A DNA stretch of 56,134 nt from positions 1 to 56,134 of IMG/VR virus record IMGVR_UViG_3300027741_000078, one strand, 5' to 3'. Source of the DNA: a virus. Taxonomy: Duplodnaviria; Caudoviricetes. The notes under the pieces are model-generated. The model was given only the letters and a program-made list of their open reading frames with translations. It had not been told where the DNA came from and did no database searches. This document shows, piece after piece, positions 5,779-42,201 of this stretch (positions are counted from its first letter, which is position 1; every line of letters begins with the position of its first letter). Both the position numbers and the translations under genes were made by a program.

Positions 5779-6291
5779 ATGGCCGACTTTGACGCTGCAT
5801 TTGAGAAGATGATCGTTGACGAGGGGGGCTACGTCCTCCACACTGTTCCCGGTGACACGGGCGGGATGACCTATGCTGGAATTGCTAGAAATAAAAACCC
5901 CAACTGGCCGGGGTGGAATCTTATTGACCACGAAGAAAAGGGCCCTCTCCTTACTGAGATGGTGCGTAAGTTTTATAAGGCTGAGTTTTGGGACCGTATC
6001 CGAGGGGATGAGCTTACGAACCAGCCTATTGCGGAATCGATCTTCAACTTCGGCGTCAACACCGGAATCAACGTCGCGGTAAAGCTGGCGCAGTTAATTG
6101 TCGGCGTGACCCCTGATGGCGCTGTTGGACCTAAGACGGTTGAAAAGTTTAATTCTGTTGAGGCGGACTCGTTCAAGAAGGCCTATGCGTTAGCCAAGAT
6201 CGCCCGCTACGCCGACATCTGCAATAAGAACAAAACCCAGTCTAAATTTTTGCTTGGCTGGATCAACAGAACGCTGAGGGGCCTAAAGTAA
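5779..6291 (+). CDS. Endolysin, glycoside hydrolase family 108 with C-terminal peptidoglycan-binding segment
   Basis: EGGY...GDTGGMTYAGI, DGAVGPKT, FLLGWINR motifs; GAGGAGG SD. Confidence 0.9.
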   Translation: MADFDAAFEKMIVDEGGYVLHTVPGDTGGMTYAGIARNKNPNWPGWNLIDHEEKGPLLTEMVRKFYKAEFWDRIRGDELTNQPIAESIFNFGVNTGINVAVKLAQLIVGVTPDGAVGPKTVEKFNSVEADSFKKAYALAKIARYADICNKNKTQSKFLLGWINRTLRGLK

Positions 6292-6809
6292 TGGACTTGA
6301 CCCAAGAGTACATTAAAGAATGTTTGGATTACAATCCAGAAACTGGAACATTTTTTTGGAGGATTCGTCCAATCAGTCATTTCAAAGACTTGCGCCGCCA
6401 ACGAATTTTCAACAGGGTTTACGCTGGAAAGCCTTGTGGTCATTTGAACAAACAAGGATATTTGGTTATTCGGGTTGCAGGATTTCTTTGCAAAGCCCAC
6501 AGGTTGGCGTGGTTATATGTTCATGGCGCCATGCCAAAAGAATTGCTTGACCACATCAATCGAAACCGATCTGATAACAGAATTTGCAATTTACGAGAGG
6601 CTTCACCCACGTTAAACGCCCAAAATGCTTCAATTCGTGTCGATAATACAAGCGGCGTTACGGGCGTGTCTTGGCATAAAGTTACAAACAAATGGACTGT
6701 TCAAATTAGCAAACGGGGAAAACCGACACATATTGGTGTTTTTGCAACTATTGAAGAAGCAAAAATAGCAAGACTGCAGGCTGAACTTGCGCGAATGGAG
6801 ATCGCCTGA
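6291..6809 (+). CDS. HNH-AP2 homing endonuclease
   Basis: AHRLAWLYVHG...DHINRNRSDNRICNLR (HNH) plus NTSGVTGVSW...HIGVF (AP2); AT-richer than neighbours. Confidence 0.9.
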   Translation: MDLTQEYIKECLDYNPETGTFFWRIRPISHFKDLRRQRIFNRVYAGKPCGHLNKQGYLVIRVAGFLCKAHRLAWLYVHGAMPKELLDHINRNRSDNRICNLREASPTLNAQNASIRVDNTSGVTGVSWHKVTNKWTVQISKRGKPTHIGVFATIEEAKIARLQAELARMEIA

Positions 6810-7246
6810 TGGACTTAATCGGGATTGGGGCAATTATTGATGGGGTTGGGAAGGTTGCGGATTCGCTCTACACAACTGACAAAGAAAGGCTTGAGATTGG
6901 TCTAAAGGGCCGAGAGCTTGACCTAGAAGAGAAGCGGATTGAGCAGGCGACGGACCTCGCTCAGGTTGAAGTTAACAAGATTGAGGCGAACAACCCCAAC
7001 GTATTCGTAAGCGGCTGGCGTCCTGCTGTTGGCTGGGTTGGCGTGCTGGGGTTGGCTTATCAGTTCATCGGCTACCCGCTACTGCAGTGGTGCTGGGTCT
7101 TTGGGCAGGGAATAGACTGGATACCGAAGGGATTGGCCGCGCCACCGAATCTAGAGGTTGAGCAGCTCATGACGCTACTGGCCGGGTTGCTTGGGTTTGG
7201 TGGCATGAGGTCGTTTGAGAAGACTAAGGGCGTAGCCGCAAAGTAA
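6809..7246 (+). CDS. Holin, GTA 3TM-type family
   Basis: SGWRPAVGW and LLGFGGMRSFEK motifs, hydrophobic segments. Confidence 0.85.
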   Translation: MDLIGIGAIIDGVGKVADSLYTTDKERLEIGLKGRELDLEEKRIEQATDLAQVEVNKIEANNPNVFVSGWRPAVGWVGVLGLAYQFIGYPLLQWCWVFGQGIDWIPKGLAAPPNLEVEQLMTLLAGLLGFGGMRSFEKTKGVAAK

Positions 7247-34701: not shown

Positions 34702-35532
34702 ATGAGTGACCCGTTTAAGATTTCTGGACCAACCTGCATATCATTTTCCGGCGGGAGAACGTCCGCCTATATGTTATGGAGGACACTGGAAGCTAACAAC
34801 GGGTTGCCTGATGAGGCAAGAGTCTGCTTCCAGAACACCGGTAAAGAACGAGAAGAGACACTTAGATTTGTGAATGAATGTTCTGTGAGGTGGGGAGTAG
34901 AGATAGATTGGTTGGAGTTCAGAGACTCCGAGACCAAGTTTGAGAAGGTCACGTTTGAGACGGCCAGTAGGAACGGTGAGCCATTCGAGGCCGTCATCCG
35001 TAAACGTAAGTACCTGCCGAACCCGTTGGTGAGGTTCTGCACCGTAGAATTGAAGGTGAGAACCTGCCACCGATACTTAAAGTCTCTAGGTTGGGACGAA
35101 TGGGAAAGCTGGATCGGCATCAGGGCAGACGAGCAACGCAGGCTTGCGAAGATCAAGAACCAAGACTACGGGCGGCATGAAACCAAGTACGCTCCCTGCG
35201 GCATTGCAGGCATCACCAAACACGACGTAGCGAAGTTCTGGAAGGAACAACTCTTCGACCTAGAGCTGGACAACATCAACGGGGAGACACCCTGGGGAAA
35301 CTGTGACCTATGTTTTTTGAAGAATACGAATAAGGTCATGAGTCTAATTTCAAGAGAACCAGAGCGAGCATTGTGGTGGGCCAAGATGGAAACCATCACA
35401 GAACCTGACAAACCATCCGGTGGTTTCTTCCGCACAGACCGTCCGTCCTATCAAGCGATGATGGACGCGGCCAAGAGTCAGGTAGATATGTTCGACCAGA
35501 GCGAGGACATCTCGTGTTTCTGCGGCGATTAG
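34702..35532 (+). CDS. PAPS-reductase-like (PP-loop) protein
   Basis: ISFSGGRTS, NTGKE, RFCTVELK, IGIRADE, GNCDLCFLK, C-terminal CFCGD. Confidence 0.85.
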   Translation: MSDPFKISGPTCISFSGGRTSAYMLWRTLEANNGLPDEARVCFQNTGKEREETLRFVNECSVRWGVEIDWLEFRDSETKFEKVTFETASRNGEPFEAVIRKRKYLPNPLVRFCTVELKVRTCHRYLKSLGWDEWESWIGIRADEQRRLAKIKNQDYGRHETKYAPCGIAGITKHDVAKFWKEQLFDLELDNINGETPWGNCDLCFLKNTNKVMSLISREPERALWWAKMETITEPDKPSGGFFRTDRPSYQAMMDAAKSQVDMFDQSEDISCFCGD

Positions 35533-35559
35533 CGCTGCTTCTTTTTGTGTCATAATCTG

Positions 35560-35750
35560 ATCTCGCTCCCATGCGGTACGTCGGTGGTGGGAGCTTGCAA
35601 ACCCCGTTACACGAGCGAGCCAGAGCGGGGGCGGTGGGCGAATCCTAGAGCCGGGTGGTTGAAATAAGTCTGGGAAAAGCGTTGCCTAAGGAGCAGTGCA
35701 AAGCGGTCCCGTGTCTCTATATTGATACGGTAAGGACTTGCATTGCCTAA
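35560..35750 (+). ncRNA. Candidate structured non-coding RNA or cis-element
   Basis: Four consecutive hairpins with G-U pairs in a 311-bp non-coding gap; CATAAT at 35551. Confidence 0.4.
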
Positions 35751-35843
35751 GATAAGAATAGAATAGATTGATAGATAGATATATAGCGTGTTTTTTTTTG
35801 ATCAAAAACAAAGAGCACCCAGCACTTTGCGGAGGCATAAAAT

Positions 35844-36209
35844 ATGCACAAAATTACGGATGAGAGTAAGGAAAAGGTAAGGAAACTTGCTGCTGCAGGT
35901 ATTAGGTTTGAGGATATTGCCGCGAAGCTTGGTATATCTAGTGACACCCTTACGCGTAGATATAGGCAGGAGTTAGATGACGGTAGGATTGACGCTAACG
36001 CTGCTATTGGAGAGACTTTGTATCAGCAGGCTAAGAATGGTAATACTGCTGCGATGATCTTCTGGCTAAAGACTCAGGGTGGCTGGCGTGAGAAGAACCA
36101 CGTTGAGGTTACTGGTGAGAATGGTGGCCCTGTTAAGGTAGACACCTCAATCTTTAATGCCATCATCACCAACCTTGAAGCGAAGCGTCAGATAGAGACA
36201 AATGAGTGA
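35844..36209 (+). CDS. terS: Terminase small subunit (HTH type)
   Basis: DIAAKLGISSDTL...TAAMIFWLKTQGGWRE...TGENGGPV; immediately upstream of TerL. Confidence 0.85.
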   Translation: MHKITDESKEKVRKLAAAGIRFEDIAAKLGISSDTLTRRYRQELDDGRIDANAAIGETLYQQAKNGNTAAMIFWLKTQGGWREKNHVEVTGENGGPVKVDTSIFNAIITNLEAKRQIETNE

Positions 36210-38523
36210 TGCTGCCCTTATTGCGGCACTTAAGGATCCGGATTTAGCGAAGCAGTTCGCCGCCCTTCCTGAGGTTGATAGGGCTGCGTTTGAGTGGCGT
36301 GCTAAGTGGCTAACGCAGGCACATAAGCATCAGATAATGCCACCTGGGGACTGGTGGAGTATTTGGCTTTTGTGCGCTGGGAGGGGAGCCGGCAAGACGA
36401 GATTAGCCGCGGAGCAGATAGGGTGGCTTACATGGTCCAACCCAGGGACTCGAGCGTTAGTAGCCGCCCCAACCTCCTCTGACGTCCGTGGCACCTGCTT
36501 TGAGGGTGATAGCGGGCTGCTCAATGTAATACCGCCTGCGCTGATTGAGGACTACAACAAGAGCCTGCACGAGCTGCGCCTAAAGAATGGCAGCCTCATC
36601 AAGGGTATCCCAGCAAGCGAGCCGGAGCGCTTCCGAGGCCCTCAGTTCCATTTTGCCTGGGCTGATGAGCTAGCCGCCTGGGACTACCTGCAAGAGGCGT
36701 GGGACCAGATCCAGTTCGGGTTGCGGCTGGGTAAGCGCACGATCATGATCTGCACCACCACGCCGAGGCCCAAGGATCTGATCATTGACCTCATCGGCAG
36801 GGATGGTGAGGATGTGGTGGTAACGACCGCCTCCACCTACACCAACCTATCCAACCTGAGCCAGAACTTCCAGAAGCAGATCCTGCAATATGAGGGCACG
36901 AAGTTAGGAAGGCAGGAGATTTACGCCGAGATTATTGATCCCGAGGAGTCTGGGATTGTTAAGCGGGATATGTTTAAGCTGTGGCCTGTTGATAAGCCAT
37001 TCCCGCGGTTTGAGTACATTATTCAGAGTTATGATTGCGCCTACACAGAGAAGACGCATAACGATCCGACTGCCTGCATTACCTTTGGCGTATTCAAGCC
37101 GCTTGATAGTCCGATGGCGGTAATGGTAATTGATTGCTGGCAAGACCGATTACAATACCCAGACCTGCGCCCTAAGGTAGTTGAGGAGTTCGAGAATGTT
37201 TACGGTGAAGGCAAGGATCGCAAGCGTGTTGATCTCATCCTGGTTGAAGATAAGTCAGCCGGGATTAGCCTCATCCAAGACCTACAAAGGGCCCATCTCC
37301 CCGTGCGTTCGTACAACCCCGGCGGGGCGGATAAGATGCAGCGCCTGAACATCGTATCCAACATCATCGCCCGCGGCAGGGTATGGATACCGGAGAGCAG
37401 CACCAGGCCGGGATTCGTGAGGGACTGGGCAGAGGGTATGGTTAGCCAGCTCTGCTCGTTCCCTGACACGACCCACGATGATTTCGTCGACGCGTGCGTT
37501 GATTCATTGACTCAAGTTTCAATGGCTAACGGGACAAAGGCGATCAAGGATATTCGCGTTGGCGATATGGTCATGACCCCAAAGGGATTGCGGCGTGTTG
37601 AGGCTGTCCACGATAACGGAATCAAAGAGGTTTGGTTTGTTGATGGATTGCTAGCAACCGCAGACCATTTGGTGTGGACCCAGCTTGGATGGACTCGGGT
37701 TGACCGCTTGATTCAAGGTGTTCATAATGTCTCCTTTAACAGGGAGGCTTTATGGGATTCAAATCAAAGGGCGTCGCGGTGGAGTCGGTTGTTTTTAATG
37801 GCAGAAAGTACAACCGCTATCCTGAGAGCAGCAATCCGGCGCATCGAAAGTATTTTGCAAGAGCCGGCCACCGTCTTCATCGGGATGTTTGGATTTTTCA
37901 CAACGGGCCCATTCCAGAGGGTATGCACGTCCACCACATTGACGGCAACACGGCCAACAATGACATCTCCAATCTTGCCTGCGTCACAAGAGCAGAGCAC
38001 TGGGATGAGCATCGGGCCGAGTTGTCTGAACGAAGCAAAAGCCCAAAGCAGCTTGAGCATCTCGCAAGGATCCGGGGCAGCGCGGCGCAGTGGCATAGAT
38101 CCGCTGAAGGTATTGAGTGGCATCGGCAGCACACAAGTAGGTCATTGGCAAAAACCTGGGGTGTCCCTCGGGCATACGTTGAAAAACCTTTCCAGTGCTT
38201 TTGGTGCGGCGTTCAAGGGCTGCGTAAATTGGATACAAAACGCTTTTGCTCTACAACCTGCCAAAACGCCGAGTCACGTTTCCGTCTCGGTAAAACGAGT
38301 TACCAGCACCCATATCACGCGGCACGTCTTTGACCTTACGGTTGAGGGCGAGCATTGCTATTACGCCAACGGGATGCTCGTACACAATTGCTCGCAAGGG
38401 CTTAGGTTCCTGCGTGACTCTGGCTGGATTGATATTGATCCGCCACCTCGAGATACTTACGACGACGACGACTACGCCGACTCCAGCGCAGGCAAGAAGC
38501 GCGTCAACCCCTACGCAATTTAG
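36202..38523 (+). CDS. terL: Terminase large subunit containing an intein (mature protein about 475 aa)
   Basis: GRGAGKT Walker A, WADE Walker B, TTTP, QSYDCA, VEDKSAG, HDDFVDA nuclease motif. Confidence 0.95.
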   Translation: MSDAALIAALKDPDLAKQFAALPEVDRAAFEWRAKWLTQAHKHQIMPPGDWWSIWLLCAGRGAGKTRLAAEQIGWLTWSNPGTRALVAAPTSSDVRGTCFEGDSGLLNVIPPALIEDYNKSLHELRLKNGSLIKGIPASEPERFRGPQFHFAWADELAAWDYLQEAWDQIQFGLRLGKRTIMICTTTPRPKDLIIDLIGRDGEDVVVTTASTYTNLSNLSQNFQKQILQYEGTKLGRQEIYAEIIDPEESGIVKRDMFKLWPVDKPFPRFEYIIQSYDCAYTEKTHNDPTACITFGVFKPLDSPMAVMVIDCWQDRLQYPDLRPKVVEEFENVYGEGKDRKRVDLILVEDKSAGISLIQDLQRAHLPVRSYNPGGADKMQRLNIVSNIIARGRVWIPESSTRPGFVRDWAEGMVSQLCSFPDTTHDDFVDACVDSLTQVSMANGTKAIKDIRVGDMVMTPKGLRRVEAVHDNGIKEVWFVDGLLATADHLVWTQLGWTRVDRLIQGVHNVSFNREALWDSNQRASRWSRLFLMAESTTAILRAAIRRIESILQEPATVFIGMFGFFTTGPFQRVCTSTTLTATRPTMTSPILPASQEQSTGMSIGPSCLNEAKAQSSLSISQGSGAARRSGIDPLKVLSGIGSTQVGHWQKPGVSLGHTLKNLSSAFGAAFKGCVNWIQNAFALQPAKTPSHVSVSVKRVTSTHITRHVFDLTVEGEHCYYANGMLVHNCSQGLRFLRDSGWIDIDPPPRDTYDDDDYADSSAGKKRVNPYAI
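37700..37747 (+). promoter_or_regulatory. Putative internal promoter (TTGACC-N17-CATAAT) and SD (GGGAGG) for the nested HNH gene
   Basis: -35 at 37700-37705, -10 at 37723-37728, SD at 37742-37747, ATG at 37752. Confidence 0.7.
37752..38333 (+). CDS. HNH homing endonuclease nested in an alternative frame inside the intein
   Basis: LHRDVWIFHNGPIPEGMHVHHIDGNTANNDISNL...EH; C-terminal CFWC...FCSTTC. Confidence 0.88.
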   Translation: MGFKSKGVAVESVVFNGRKYNRYPESSNPAHRKYFARAGHRLHRDVWIFHNGPIPEGMHVHHIDGNTANNDISNLACVTRAEHWDEHRAELSERSKSPKQLEHLARIRGSAAQWHRSAEGIEWHRQHTSRSLAKTWGVPRAYVEKPFQCFWCGVQGLRKLDTKRFCSTTCQNAESRFRLGKTSYQHPYHAARL

Positions 38524-38530
38524 GTGACCT

Positions 38531-39631
38531 ATGGGCGATCGGAGCATGGACAGGTTTGGTTACGCGGAGAGGACGATCGCCAACCTGATGAAGCAGCCTG
38601 AGACAAAGGCGGAGAAGAGGAACCTTACCACCGCGGAGAAGGCGCAGGCTTTCCTTGAGGAGCAGCTACGCCAGATCACCACCCCGGAGCGGGCACGCAG
38701 GCTTTCCATGACGGCCTTTGGCGGCCCCCAGAGTGGTATCCCTGGTGGTATGGGCGCAGTCGACTTCGTGCCGTTCCTGGGCTCCGCTAAGGGGGTTGAG
38801 GAGGGTGCCCGCGACGTCAACCAGGCGGCCTACGATTTGGAGTCTGGCCGGTATGGTGACGCCCTTCGCAACTATGGAGCCGCTGTGCTTGGGGTTCTGC
38901 CTGGTGCTGCTGGGGCGGTCAAGGTTGCTCCCGGTCTTGCCAAGGCAATCAAGGCGGCCCCACAGGATGAGGCTCTGAGGCTTGCCCAGCAACGAGCAGC
39001 ACTACCGCCATCGCAGGGTGGTTTAGGGTTGCCGGCAGAAAACACGCCAATCGAACGCGCTCAAGCAATGGGGTTTGATTACGCTAGAAGAAGTAGAAAT
39101 CCAAGTGAACCATTTAATGATGTCAATTACGCAATGTTTGCGGAACACAATGGGGATCCAGACGAGGCATTGGATAGATTGCGTACATTTGGCAAAGGCC
39201 AATGGTTAGGAAGAGCCGAAGTCCCAGTTAAAGACATTCAAAAAGACATTGTTCGTTTAATTAAAAGAAGAGGGCTTAACGAACCATATCAAACAACGGC
39301 GGCTAACTTGGCAAGAGAAGCCAATCCAACTGACATTGTGAACTCTGGCGGAATGTGGGACGCCCCAGAGATTGCAGAGGCGGTTGTTGAACACGCTAGG
39401 GATAAGGGAGTTGGGGGAGTATTCCTAAATGATGGTGCAATTATATGGGACCCCGAATTGATACGGTCTCGTGAAGCAGCTTTTGATCCTTGGCGTAGAG
39501 ACGCGGCAACTGCAGCAGCGTTCGGCGTAGCAGCCCCTGATTTGTTGGCAAAAGAAAAGACAGAAAAGAAGCCTAAGAAAGATAAAACTAAGAAGAAGCC
39601 CGAAGGCGCTCTATCCCTAATTACTGAGTGA
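38531..39631 (+). CDS. Hypothetical protein between TerL and portal; possible divergent ADP-ribosyltransferase (PolyVal-like) effector
   Basis: ERAQAMGFD...IRSREAAFDP flanks resemble those around ART-PolyVal domains. Confidence 0.55.
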   Translation: MGDRSMDRFGYAERTIANLMKQPETKAEKRNLTTAEKAQAFLEEQLRQITTPERARRLSMTAFGGPQSGIPGGMGAVDFVPFLGSAKGVEEGARDVNQAAYDLESGRYGDALRNYGAAVLGVLPGAAGAVKVAPGLAKAIKAAPQDEALRLAQQRAALPPSQGGLGLPAENTPIERAQAMGFDYARRSRNPSEPFNDVNYAMFAEHNGDPDEALDRLRTFGKGQWLGRAEVPVKDIQKDIVRLIKRRGLNEPYQTTAANLAREANPTDIVNSGGMWDAPEIAEAVVEHARDKGVGGVFLNDGAIIWDPELIRSREAAFDPWRRDAATAAAFGVAAPDLLAKEKTEKKPKKDKTKKKPEGALSLITE

Positions 39632-39639
39632 GAAGCAAT

Positions 39640-42201
39640 ATGGCAACACCGTTCCCTGTCGATCCGGAGTTCAACCGCTTCATTGAGGGCCAGCAGCAAG
39701 AGGAGCCTGAGCCGCTCGCTGATGACCTGTTCTCTGATGACGACACAGACATTGAGGAGCTTCCTGACGGCGGCGCTATCGTCAAGCAGACGACTGAGGG
39801 CCCGATGGAGAACGAGGACTTCTATTCCAACCTCGCCGACGACTTCGACGTTGAGATGGATGATGACCTCGGCGGGCTAGCGCTAAGGTATGTCGAGCTT
39901 GTTGAGAAGGACAAGCGGGCGCGGCAAAAGCGTGACGAGCAGTATGAGGAGGGGATCCGCCGTACTGGTCTGGGTAACGATGCTCCTGGTGGCGCTAACT
40001 TCAGCGGGGCCAGCAAGGTAGTCCACCCGATCATGGCCGAGGCCTGCATTGACTTTGCCGCTCGAGCCGTTAAGGAGCTATTCCCGCCTGACGGTCCGGT
40101 TCGCACCAACATCATCGGCGAGGTTGATGACGACAAGACTGCGGCCGCCGATCGCAAGCGTGACTTCATGAACTGGCAGCTTACTGACCAGATTGAGGAG
40201 TTCCGCGACGAGCAAGAGCAGATGATGACGCAGCTTCCTCTGGGTGGCTCGCAGTACATGAAGCTCTGGTACGACGAGCGCAAGAAGCGTCCCTGTGCCG
40301 AGTTCCTCCCGATTGACAATGTGCTGCTGCCGTTTGCCGCGGTGAACTTCTATACCGCCCAGCGCGTGACCGAGGTGCAGGACATCACGCAGTATGAGTT
40401 TGAGCGGCGTGTTGCGTCTGGGTTGTACAAGGACATCGGCTGGCTATCCTCCGCGCACGAGCTGGAAGAGACCAAGGCGCAGAAGGCCACCGACAAGATT
40501 GAGGGCCGATCCAAGGGTGAGAATGAAGACGGGATGCGCCGTATATTCCACATATATACCTGGCTCGAGCTAAAGAACGACAAGTACACAAAGGGTGAGT
40601 CGGCGCCCTACATCCTCATGATTGACGAGTACAACACCGAGGTCATCGGTCTGTACCGCAACTGGGAGGAAGGCGACGAGACGATGACCAAGCTTGACTG
40701 GATCGTCGAGTACAAGTTCATTCCCTGGCGTGGTGCGTATGCGATCGGGCTGCCACACCTCATTGGCGGCCTCTCTGCGGCCCTTACAGGCTCTCTAAGG
40801 GCTCTGCTGGACTCTGCCCACATCAACAACGCTGCGACGCTCCTAAAGCTTAAGGGCGCGAAGCTATCGGGTCAGTCTGTGCAGGTTGAGGTGACGCAGG
40901 TTGCCGAGATTGAGGCGGCTCCTGGCATTGACGACATCAAGAAGCTTGCGATGCCGATGCCGTTTAACCCTCCCTCGCCGGTGCTGATGGAGTTGCTGGG
41001 GTGGTTGACGAACGCCGCTAAGGGTGTGGTGACGACGGCCGAGGAGAAGATAGCCGACGTTAACGCCCAGGCTCCGGTTGGCACGACGCAGGCCTTGATT
41101 GAGCAGGGTGCTGCGGTCTTCTCATCTATTCACGCTCGTCTTCATGCTAGCCAGAAACGGCTGTTGAAGGTGCTTGGGCGTATCAATCGCTGGTATCTGG
41201 AGGATATGCAGCGTGATGAGGTCGTGGAGGGGCTTGAGATTAGCCGTGACGACTTCCTAAAGGTCAGTGATGTGGTCCCGGTGAGTGACCCGCACATCTT
41301 CTCTGAGACGCAGCGCATGGCCCAGACGCAGGCCGTGATGGCGATCATGGAGAAGGCGCCTGATTTGTTCAATCGACAGGCTGTTATTGAGCGGTTTTTG
41401 AAGCAGATCAAGGTTCCTAGCATCAATGAGTTGATGATTAAGAACCCTGAGCCGACGCTAACGGACGCCGCCAATGAGAATGTGGCGATGGCAAGCAATC
41501 AGATGGCTAAGGCGTTTCCTGAGCAGGACCATTTGGGGCATATTCAGGTGCATTTGGACTTTGCAAAGAACCCTGTTTACGGTTCAAACCCCTTAATTGC
41601 GCCTATTTACCTGCCAAAGGTCATAGATCATTTGCGCGAGCACATTGTCTTGTGGTATTTACATCGCATGAGCGGCTATGTTGAGAAAACAACTGGAGAA
41701 AGTCCGGAAATTTACGAAAACATGGACAATCCTAGGCCGATGGACAAGATTTTTGGGGCTGTTTCTCAGCACGTCATGCTTGATACGCAAGAAACGCTCG
41801 CTGGGATCATGCCTGAGATACAAAAACTCATGCAGATGGCCGAGCAATACAAGCAGAAACCGGAAATGCCGCCTGATGCACAGGTGTTGATGCAAACGAG
41901 CATGGCGGAGACGCAGCGCAGAGCACAAAGAGACCAGCAAGAGATGCAGTTGAAGGCCCAAGAGATGCAGGCCGAGGCGTCAATGAAGACCCAGAAGATG
42001 CAGGCCGACTATGACCTGACTCAGCAGGAGTTGAAGTTGCGCTACGGCTCTAAGCAGCTTGATAACGACCTCAAGGAGCAGATTGAGGGGGCTAAATTGG
42101 AGCGGGATGCCGCGGCATTGAAGATTGACCAGGACAAGATTGCGATCGAGATGGCTAAGGGTGGTTTGGTTCAACAAGGAGACGGCTATGGCAACGAGTG
42201 A
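39640..42201 (+). CDS. Portal protein
   Basis: SKVVHP.MAEA, FMNWQLT, GAYAIGLPHLIGG, APVGTTQALIEQG motifs; size and position. Confidence 0.9.
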   Translation: MATPFPVDPEFNRFIEGQQQEEPEPLADDLFSDDDTDIEELPDGGAIVKQTTEGPMENEDFYSNLADDFDVEMDDDLGGLALRYVELVEKDKRARQKRDEQYEEGIRRTGLGNDAPGGANFSGASKVVHPIMAEACIDFAARAVKELFPPDGPVRTNIIGEVDDDKTAAADRKRDFMNWQLTDQIEEFRDEQEQMMTQLPLGGSQYMKLWYDERKKRPCAEFLPIDNVLLPFAAVNFYTAQRVTEVQDITQYEFERRVASGLYKDIGWLSSAHELEETKAQKATDKIEGRSKGENEDGMRRIFHIYTWLELKNDKYTKGESAPYILMIDEYNTEVIGLYRNWEEGDETMTKLDWIVEYKFIPWRGAYAIGLPHLIGGLSAALTGSLRALLDSAHINNAATLLKLKGAKLSGQSVQVEVTQVAEIEAAPGIDDIKKLAMPMPFNPPSPVLMELLGWLTNAAKGVVTTAEEKIADVNAQAPVGTTQALIEQGAAVFSSIHARLHASQKRLLKVLGRINRWYLEDMQRDEVVEGLEISRDDFLKVSDVVPVSDPHIFSETQRMAQTQAVMAIMEKAPDLFNRQAVIERFLKQIKVPSINELMIKNPEPTLTDAANENVAMASNQMAKAFPEQDHLGHIQVHLDFAKNPVYGSNPLIAPIYLPKVIDHLREHIVLWYLHRMSGYVEKTTGESPEIYENMDNPRPMDKIFGAVSQHVMLDTQETLAGIMPEIQKLMQMAEQYKQKPEMPPDAQVLMQTSMAETQRRAQRDQQEMQLKAQEMQAEASMKTQKMQADYDLTQQELKLRYGSKQLDNDLKEQIEGAKLERDAAALKIDQDKIAIEMAKGGLVQQGDGYGNE

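Follow-up and report, generated by a model that had tools for sequence, protein, structure and literature searches.

A phage terminase intein carrying a predicted HNH endonuclease gene in its +2 frame, with putative start signals in intein-coding DNA

The DNA analysed is the complete IMG/VR virus record IMGVR_UViG_3300027741_000078, of 56,134 bases, referred to below as the window. Its terL gene, encoding the large terminase subunit, is interrupted by an intein directly after the codons of the nuclease motif HDDFVDA, and the DNA of this intein also contains, in the +2 frame relative to terL, an open reading frame (ORF) for a putative HNH endonuclease. Signals resembling a promoter and a Shine-Dalgarno (SD) sequence precede this nested gene within intein-coding DNA. 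The features of the locus are listed with their basis; model confidence is given as pLDDT (predicted local distance difference test), pN/pS is the ratio of nonsynonymous to synonymous differences, and a slash in a motif marks a splice junction.

36202..38523, plus strand: terL precursor ORF, 773 amino acids (N-extein, intein and C-extein); ORF list, Pfam matches to Terminase_6N, Terminase_6C and Intein_splicing
36202..37494, plus strand: TerL N-extein, 431 amino acids, ending in the nuclease motif HDDFVDA; Pfam, 99% identity to the intein-less locus L093
37495..38388, plus strand: class-1 intein, 298 amino acids (Cys1 to His-Asn), followed by Cys+1; landmarks, Pfam, intein-less alleles, AlphaFold model
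37495..37761, plus strand: N-terminal splicing part of the intein, residues 1-89, with blocks A and B and TADH; pLDDT 90-96, TerL-frame wobble, invariant T55 and H58
37700..37728, plus strand: sigma-70-like promoter motif TTGACC-N17-CATAAT, predicted only; 10/12 match, relatives
37742..37747, plus strand: Shine-Dalgarno sequence GGGAGG, 4 nt 5' of the HNH ATG (37752); sequence, relatives
37752..38333, plus strand: nested HNH_3 endonuclease gene, 193 amino acids and TGA, frame +2 relative to terL; ORF list, Pfam, selection, models
37762..38259, plus strand: TerL-frame read-through of HNH DNA, intein residues 90-255, stop-free; pLDDT <50, no Pfam match, pN/pS >1
38260..38388, plus strand: C-terminal splicing part of the intein, residues 256-298, with blocks F and G, VFDLTVEGEHCYYANGMLVHN; pLDDT 89-96, TerL-frame wobble regained at 38290-38334
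38389..38523, plus strand: TerL C-extein, 44 amino acids (CSQGLRFLRD...) and stop codon; ORF, intein-less alleles

An intein of 298 amino acids after HDDFVDA, with Cys1 at 37495 and its end at 38388, had been proposed in an earlier note on this DNA. It can be read directly from the translation and is confirmed by the Pfam match to Intein_splicing and by alignments with MW202545 and L093. The hallmarks of a class 1 intein are present on both sides, with Cys1 at 37495 and TADH (TxxH) in block B at the 5' side, and VFDLTV...VHN/C ending at 38388 at the 3' side, where VFDLTVEGEHCYYANGMLVHN is followed by Cys. The intein was placed at 37495-38388 because alignment with MW202545, an intein-less homologue, joins the extein halves there (HDEFVD/CISQGLRY in MW202545, HDDFVDA/intein/CSQGLRF in the window). 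In Pfam searches with the 773-residue ORF, Intein_splicing scored 36.9 bits (cut-off 35.8) and Vint 27.2 bits (cut-off 27). Residues C1, T55 and H58 are invariant across 64 aligned inteins, and among the 81 nested loci described below Cys1 is found in 80 (the remaining locus is cut off) and a terminal Asn followed by Cys or Ser in all 81. As the TerL ORF is unbroken, both in the window and in 81/81 nested loci, this is not a fractured gene with a split intein.

An AlphaFold model of the intein, based on the 64 aligned inteins, reaches pLDDT 90-96 across residues 1-89 and 89-96 across residues 256-298; residues 90-255 stay below 50 and form no secondary structure. The model resembles mini-inteins (gp41-1 with E 4e-6; Ssp DnaB and Mtu RecA with template modelling scores of 0.78-0.79), and a mini-intein (Hint) fold with a disordered loop at residues 90-255 is predicted. 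The description of the middle of the intein frame as stop-free and devoid of motifs therefore holds, as a Pfam search found no family for this part read in the TerL frame and the model gives it pLDDT values below 50. The first 74 bases of the C-terminal splicing part, from 38260, also encode the tail of the HNH protein and its stop codon.

The gene in the other frame, 37752-38333, matches HNH_3 with E 3.8e-18 (65 bits against a cut-off of 24.8), as its earlier identification as an HNH gene would predict. HNH_3 is the sole Pfam match at E <=0.01, and the protein does not belong to the endonuclease VII family (IPR004211). The GGGAGG upstream of the gene and the overlap of its TGA (38331-38333) with the TTT GAC codons of intein block F, both reported in the earlier note, are present. 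All 63 HNH ORFs of the family that were compared match HNH_3, and H61, H62, N69, N70, N74, H83 and the four Cys residues of the zinc ribbon are invariant among them. The AlphaFold model of the HNH protein (mean pLDDT 87) shows an I-HmuI-like N-terminal half, a helical middle and a C-terminal CxxC...CxxxC zinc ribbon. Its best structural match is I-HmuI of Bacillus phage SPO1, an intron-encoded HNH nicking homing endonuclease; residues 13-93 align with PDB entry 1u3e in VIA-align with Z 7.2 and a root-mean-square deviation of 2.9 over 74 residues (26% identity), the runner-up structure reaching Z 4.7. Foldseek returned nothing from the PDB at E <=0.001, 1u3e being found at E 0.02 with probability 0.93. 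The likeness is limited to the N-terminal half. I-HmuI has its gene in a group I intron and carries a C-terminal helix-turn-helix, unlike the nested HNH protein with its helical middle and zinc ribbon. A search among longer proteins for in-frame fusions found no in-frame TerL form in 239 candidates, which is a weak indication; the sole in-frame case was a ribonucleotide reductase intein with an in-frame HNH_3 domain (P0001).

Selection in the overlap was compared across 23 unique close relatives, whose HNH proteins are 57-77% identical. For pairs with more than 85% nucleotide identity, pN/pS is 0.07-0.30 in the HNH frame compared with 1.1-3.3 in the TerL frame. Amino acid identity averages 0.68 for the HNH frame against 0.46 for the TerL frame. 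Variation is greatest at TerL codon position 3 throughout the exteins and the two splicing parts; between 37750 and about 38290 it peaks at TerL position 2 (equivalent to HNH position 3), and TerL position 3 again becomes the most variable in 38290-38334. Every indel in the alignment is a multiple of 3. Conservation therefore follows the HNH frame and not the intein frame, a comparison that the earlier note had named as decisive. Despite this, TerL-frame stops are absent from the overlap in all 72 unique nested copies, where synonymous shuffles lead one to expect 2.2 per gene, and for AT-rich family members the shuffle probability of finding none is 2-3e-4. Free-standing or otherwise non-nested homologues contain 1-12 stops each in the equivalent frame (10/10). 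These comparisons indicate that purifying selection in the overlap acts on the HNH frame, the TerL frame being merely kept stop-free. The locus thus has what characterises out-of-frame intein endonucleases: an ORF in another frame between the splicing blocks, an intein frame that is stop-free and unstructured there, and purifying selection that acts on the endonuclease frame but not on the intein frame it overlaps.

The nested layout is real and no artefact. Contigs from an independent sequencing run show 0 differences and 0 gaps relative to the window, and a 92% identical relative spanning 37306-38424 differs by 89 substitutions and 0 gaps; frame-restoring indels that would place the HNH in frame with the intein were looked for in both, and none were found. 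IMG/VR was scanned with an alignment of six HNH proteins, and 555 stretches encode relatives of the nested HNH, so the layout is not rare as had been supposed. The best 80 of these 555 were analysed, and 76 of them have the HNH inside a long ORF, again offset by +2. This share overstates that of the whole HNH family, as the query alignment consisted mostly of nested copies. A tblastn search of cultured phages with the HNH protein gave nested copies in four of the five loci examined: Rhodobacteraceae phage LS06-2018-MD07, Tetrasphaera phage TJE1, Acinetobacter phage Highwayman and Clostridium phage phiCDHM19, whose hosts belong to the Proteobacteria, Actinobacteria and Clostridia. Each carries the HNH within a single annotated terL, at +2 and with the TerL frame open across it. 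The +2 offset is constant in 81/81 nested loci, and the insertion point is always 0-4 residues from the nuclease motif (H)DD..DA. The N-exteins of 69 loci match Terminase_6N (54), Terminase_6C (34) and Terminase_3 (20), and in a few cases T7-type domains. Judged from these records, the nested layout is common in environmental phages and not a one-off.

Evidence of mobility comes from intein-less alleles. Among the 80 closest TerL relatives in IMG/VR, 72 are without the intein, six have intein and HNH, and two are cut off. The nearest, L093, is 99% identical in the N-extein and lacks exactly the 894 intein bases. The insertion is thus precise, in frame and absent from homologous alleles (MW202545, L093 and a contig from metagenome run X4); that one run contains both an intein-bearing relative and this contig, which joins 37491 to 38392. 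A tree was built from 94 unique N-exteins (27 with the intein), all drawn from two biased searches; it requires at least 11 state changes, of which well-supported branches force at least 5, and places the window with L093 within a clade of eight intein-less rows. The sporadic distribution and the near-identical intein-less sister suggest, indirectly, that the element is mobile and homes. Free-standing HNH homologues adjoin terminase genes in all six cultured phages examined, preceding terS in BP10 and lying between terL and the portal gene in Shemara, EauM-23, PAE1, CL2 and SN1, which fits an origin from a free-standing endonuclease gene targeting the terminase region. As a separate observation, at window positions 37416-37466 runs X1 and X2, from samples that contain the window, hold contigs of a more distant terL that continues ...HDEFVDCI... 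and is intein-less.

The promoter-like motif TTGACC-N17-CATAAT, to which the earlier note had drawn attention, agrees with a sigma-70-like consensus at 10/12 positions and is the top site in 35500-39700, although the consensus of the host may differ. Of 22 unique close relatives, 20 keep it, with a set spacing of 23 or 26 nt to the ATG. The wobble base of the Val codon GTT (37701) is T in 21/21 sequences and that of the Asn codon AAT (37728) is T in 22/22, even though GTT and AAT are rare choices in these genes, accounting for 20% and 22% of the respective codons. Invariant wobble bases are found in just 3.2% of 311 comparable columns, as against two of the four wobble positions in the hexamers. 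One relative (L026) has a 10/12 site at the same place despite a change of the encoded residues from H-N to D-T. Across the wider family, sites of at least 9/12 occur upstream of the HNH in 36 of 69 unique loci, compared with 2.5% in the N-extein, 3.9% inside the HNH, 4.3% at the intein start and 7.5% in shuffles; sites of at least 10/12 occur in 24/69, compared with 0-0.8% in the four kinds of control.

The translation signals are more widely kept. In 28/28 close loci the corresponding position has an ATG, preceded at 4-8 nt by a purine-rich SD sequence; a 5-mer SD occurs in 41 of 69 unique loci, compared with 7% at internal in-frame start-like codons, and a 4-mer SD in 53/69. Of 65 loci, 60 start with ATG, and in 50 a stop closes the HNH frame no more than 10 codons upstream of the start; in the window this stop lies four codons ahead of the ATG. 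These comparisons support the motif and the SD/ATG as conserved start signals of the nested gene. Two further observations concern the same region: a third wobble base, in the spacer Leu codon at 37708-37710, is G in 24/24 sequences, and TTGAC...TCAA at 37700-37718 could pair as a short hairpin. Contigs of the one RNA-library run found (X3) were compared with the window over 38372-38600, and so bear neither on an HNH transcript nor on a start near 37735.

The locus is probably best read as a mobile intein in terL whose homing endonuclease is a separate gene overprinted in the +2 frame. That an HNH gene of the free-standing type invaded a mini-intein, leaving the DNA dual-coding, had been suggested in the earlier note, and is supported by the wobble switch at 37750 and at ~38290-38334, pN/pS, the avoidance of stops in nested copies only and the free-standing homologues beside terminase genes. 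From this arrangement we infer splicing, the activity and target of the nuclease, and the activity and timing of the promoter. Ribosomes translating terL would pass through the nuclease DNA in the TerL frame, and this read-through would insert ~165 residues, a loop for which disorder is predicted, between the halves of the mini-intein (Hint) fold. Protein splicing would excise the intein together with the loop and join ...HDDFVDA to CSQGLRF..., restoring the TerL nuclease active site. The HNH protein would be made separately from GGGAGG-N4-ATG (37742-37754), most likely on a short transcript starting at ~37735 from the TTGACC-N17-CATAAT promoter in the DNA coding for the N-terminal part of the intein; on such a transcript the HNH start site would not be overrun by ribosomes in the terL frame. 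In a mixed infection the HNH protein may nick or cut an intein-less terL at the DNA encoding the conserved HDD..DA motif, and repair would copy the intein and HNH jointly.

Several points weigh against this interpretation, or against parts of it. A scan of 35500-39700 gave 3 promoter-like sites where shuffles gave 3.6, which is unremarkable, and in the window alone the open TerL frame is equally so (synonymous shuffle probability of no stops 0.64). The stop-avoidance argument therefore rests on the family, and promoter and open frame, not significant in the window alone, gain significance only from relatives; the 72 nested copies are themselves related, and their summed stop probability is not a true P-value. 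An upstream site of at least 9/12 is lacking in 31 of 47 distant relatives, and the -35 hexamer falls on the conserved intein motif G-W-x-R-V-D-x-L, which itself favours TTGA(C/T). Tetrasphaera phage TJE1 has no obvious SD before its HNH. Finally, no clear co-conversion tract was seen relative to L093 over the usable span of 35541-39600, the differences near the insertion being two substitutions within 16 nt upstream and the junction codons, with the first downstream difference 64 nt away.

It is possible, if rather doubtful, that there is no dedicated promoter and that the HNH is made by internal initiation at the SD on late terL mRNA, the motif reflecting RNA structure, codon context or chance among related sequences. 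The SD and start are indeed kept more widely than the promoter-like site (the 4-mer SD in 53/69 loci, the site of at least 9/12 in 36/69), the -35 overlaps codons of a conserved motif, a third invariant wobble lies in the spacer, pairing of TTGAC with TCAA makes an RNA or DNA hairpin possible, and the sigma-70-like consensus may not be that of the host. This explanation does not readily account for the invariant hexamer wobbles in rarely chosen codons, the survival of the L026 site through a change of residues, the excess of motifs of at least 10/12 over all four controls, or the fixed distance from motif to ATG. An improbable alternative is that the HNH serves packaging, instead of or besides homing, as a terminase accessory captured in terL, comparable to the HNH proteins that act together with TerL at cos sites. 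Packaging HNH genes are described as adjoining cos and terminase genes (PMC3592412), and the free-standing homologues also lie directly beside terminase genes in 6/6 cultured phages. A packaging HNH protein of the HK97 gp74 type should be a required partner of TerL and conserved wherever its TerL type occurs, whereas 72 of the 80 closest TerL relatives, including the one with a 99% identical N-extein, are without intein and nested HNH, which is therefore dispensable; in addition, carriers are scattered sporadically over the TerL tree, the protein belongs to HNH_3 and has an I-HmuI-like fold, and the nested HNH always accompanies an intein at the same structural site.

Programmed ribosomal frameshifting into the +2 frame and back, which would produce a canonical intein-endonuclease fusion, would agree with the constant offset in 81/81 nested loci, yet is very improbable. 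It needs two precise shifts, the return one inside structured intein sequence as the HNH stop lies within block F; no X XXY YYZ slippery heptamer is found in the TerL frame on reading 37730-37790; a start codon (ATG in 60/65) and SD are kept at the 5' end of the ORF; and the upstream stop in the HNH frame (four codons from the ATG in the window, 10 or fewer from the start in 50/65 loci) argues against a fusion. An assembly or sequencing indel, or a decaying pseudogene, would find a precedent in the old record of phage phiCD119, which has stops in both frames where phiCDHM19 is intact. This is scarcely conceivable given the independent run without indels, the 81 loci with the same frame layout, the strong purifying selection on the HNH frame and indels that are all multiples of 3. 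For the window it was ruled out by the indel-free independent run, the 81 like loci and the selection on the HNH frame.

Out-of-frame intein homing endonucleases were described in 2025-2026 and termed rare there, and the available text of these reports leaves the route of expression open. The earlier note had mentioned such a case from actinobacteriophages; this is right for the architecture, but the published one concerns a different nuclease family, a homing enzyme resembling endonuclease VII that is encoded in reading frame 3 (Gosselin, Arsenault and Gogarten, bioRxiv 10.1101/2025.01.02.630785). As described in the main parts of that preprint, those inteins share with the present ones a sense-strand nuclease ORF in frame 3 between the splicing blocks, an intein frame that is open and lacks recognisable structure, TerL among the host genes, and a proposed origin by invasion of an intein by a free-standing endonuclease gene. 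They differ in that the present family is HNH_3 only (63/63) and I-HmuI-like, and in that its hosts include Proteobacteria and Clostridia. A tblastn search with the TJE1 copy of the HNH matched 22 phage records, none of which are the actinophages named there. The main text of that preprint, supplementary tables aside, does not contain 'promoter' or 'ribosom'.

In a cyanobacterial dnaX intein, a +2 ORF encodes a LAGLIDADG endonuclease (Phillips, DeSimone and Gogarten, bioRxiv 10.64898/2026.09.14.751524). By the account available, it resembles the present system in its +2 ORF, its low dN/dS (nonsynonymous to synonymous substitution rates) in the endonuclease frame and raised dN/dS in the intein frame, its coexisting intein-free and intein-bearing alleles, a putative SD before the ORF, and the secondary invasion of a mini-intein that is proposed. 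It differs in being a LAGLIDADG enzyme in a cellular gene, compared with HNH_3 in phage terL, and the accessible text uses 'promoter' 0 times and discusses none. The ShiLan domain is a hidden out-of-frame HNH in mycobacteriophage DNA methylases (PMC11855218), likewise a sporadic HNH gene for ~195 amino acids with zinc fingers, in the third frame of a stop-free insertion read through by the host gene. As reported in the portion of that article consulted, it is without a splicing domain, so that the insert remains in the host protein, and lacks a detectable ribosome-binding site, leaderless initiation being proposed, unlike the complete intein and strong SD found here; no promoter is mentioned in that portion. 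Fractured genes with split inteins also carry a free-standing-type endonuclease gene between the N- and C-terminal splicing parts, in the cases described by Dassa et al. 2009 (PMC2677866). In contrast to these, the host ORF is continuous here, with no stop in 81/81 nested loci, and cis-splicing is therefore expected rather than trans-splicing.

In a full-text literature search, preprint supplements aside, no terminase intein with an out-of-frame HNH_3 came to light. The TerL intein of phage TaPaz is described without one in the accessible text of PMC8228797, and that of PMC5050341 does not mention an out-of-frame HNH in a terminase intein. The architecture has therefore already been published in 2025-2026 for other nuclease families; the TerL/HNH_3 family is a new, widespread member of this known kind, provided with putative embedded expression signals.

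The family has hosts in three phyla, targets an essential packaging enzyme at its catalytic motif and appears from sequence comparison to carry conserved translation and transcription signals that are testable. Gene callers annotate such loci as a single long terminase and miss the nuclease, and intein surveys limited to in-frame domains would take them for mini-inteins or for inteins containing an insert of unknown kind. As natural material, this family lends itself to studying how selection conserves one frame while the other is merely kept free of stops. A tentative extension, in which we place some but not predominant belief, is that all copies descend from one ancient composite in which a mini-intein and an I-HmuI-like HNH were fixed in the +2 arrangement with their own promoter and SD, and which spread, as a self-contained expression cassette, to codons of the nuclease active site in three or more TerL families, among phages of Proteobacteria, Actinobacteria and Firmicutes. 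If such a composite did exist, no overprinted intein-endonuclease family so far would be larger or more widespread, nuclease synthesis, early and from the short transcript, would be uncoupled by the internal promoter from late TerL synthesis, and this would answer how hidden out-of-frame homing endonucleases are expressed.

Some minor observations were made among the related loci. In L021-L025 and L029-L032 a related intein lies three codons further upstream (HDDF/C...N/CDAFSQ, compared with HDDFVDA/C...N/CSQ in the window), so that in homologous genes the element is found at two sites separated by 9 nt. Some terL genes have a second intein in the N-extein (L007, L008, L025, L033, L043, L071 and L072, with ORFs of 1048-1191 amino acids); Intein_splicing is matched by 6/69 N-exteins, one of these six with a LAGLIDADG domain. 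In the record of Clostridium phage phiCD119 (L092), positions 1700-2000 contain stops in the TerL frame (the first at 1744-1746) and in the HNH frame, where the related phiCDHM19 is intact; the locus is annotated as two genes, which could be due to a sequencing error or to a decaying element.

In the window itself, terL is preceded by a gene for a small helix-turn-helix protein (35844-36209), possibly the small terminase. A gene some 300 nt further upstream, on the plus strand at 34702-35532, encodes a protein of 276 amino acids resembling phosphoadenosine phosphosulfate (PAPS) reductase (PF01507). A second HNH_3 gene, free-standing and with an AP2 domain (172 amino acids), is located at 6291-6809 on the plus strand, flanked by a GH108 endolysin gene (5779-6291) and a gene for a holin with three transmembrane segments (6809-7246). 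Its product is weakly similar to the nested HNH (36% identity over 33 residues), with LDHIN where the nested protein has HVHHID.

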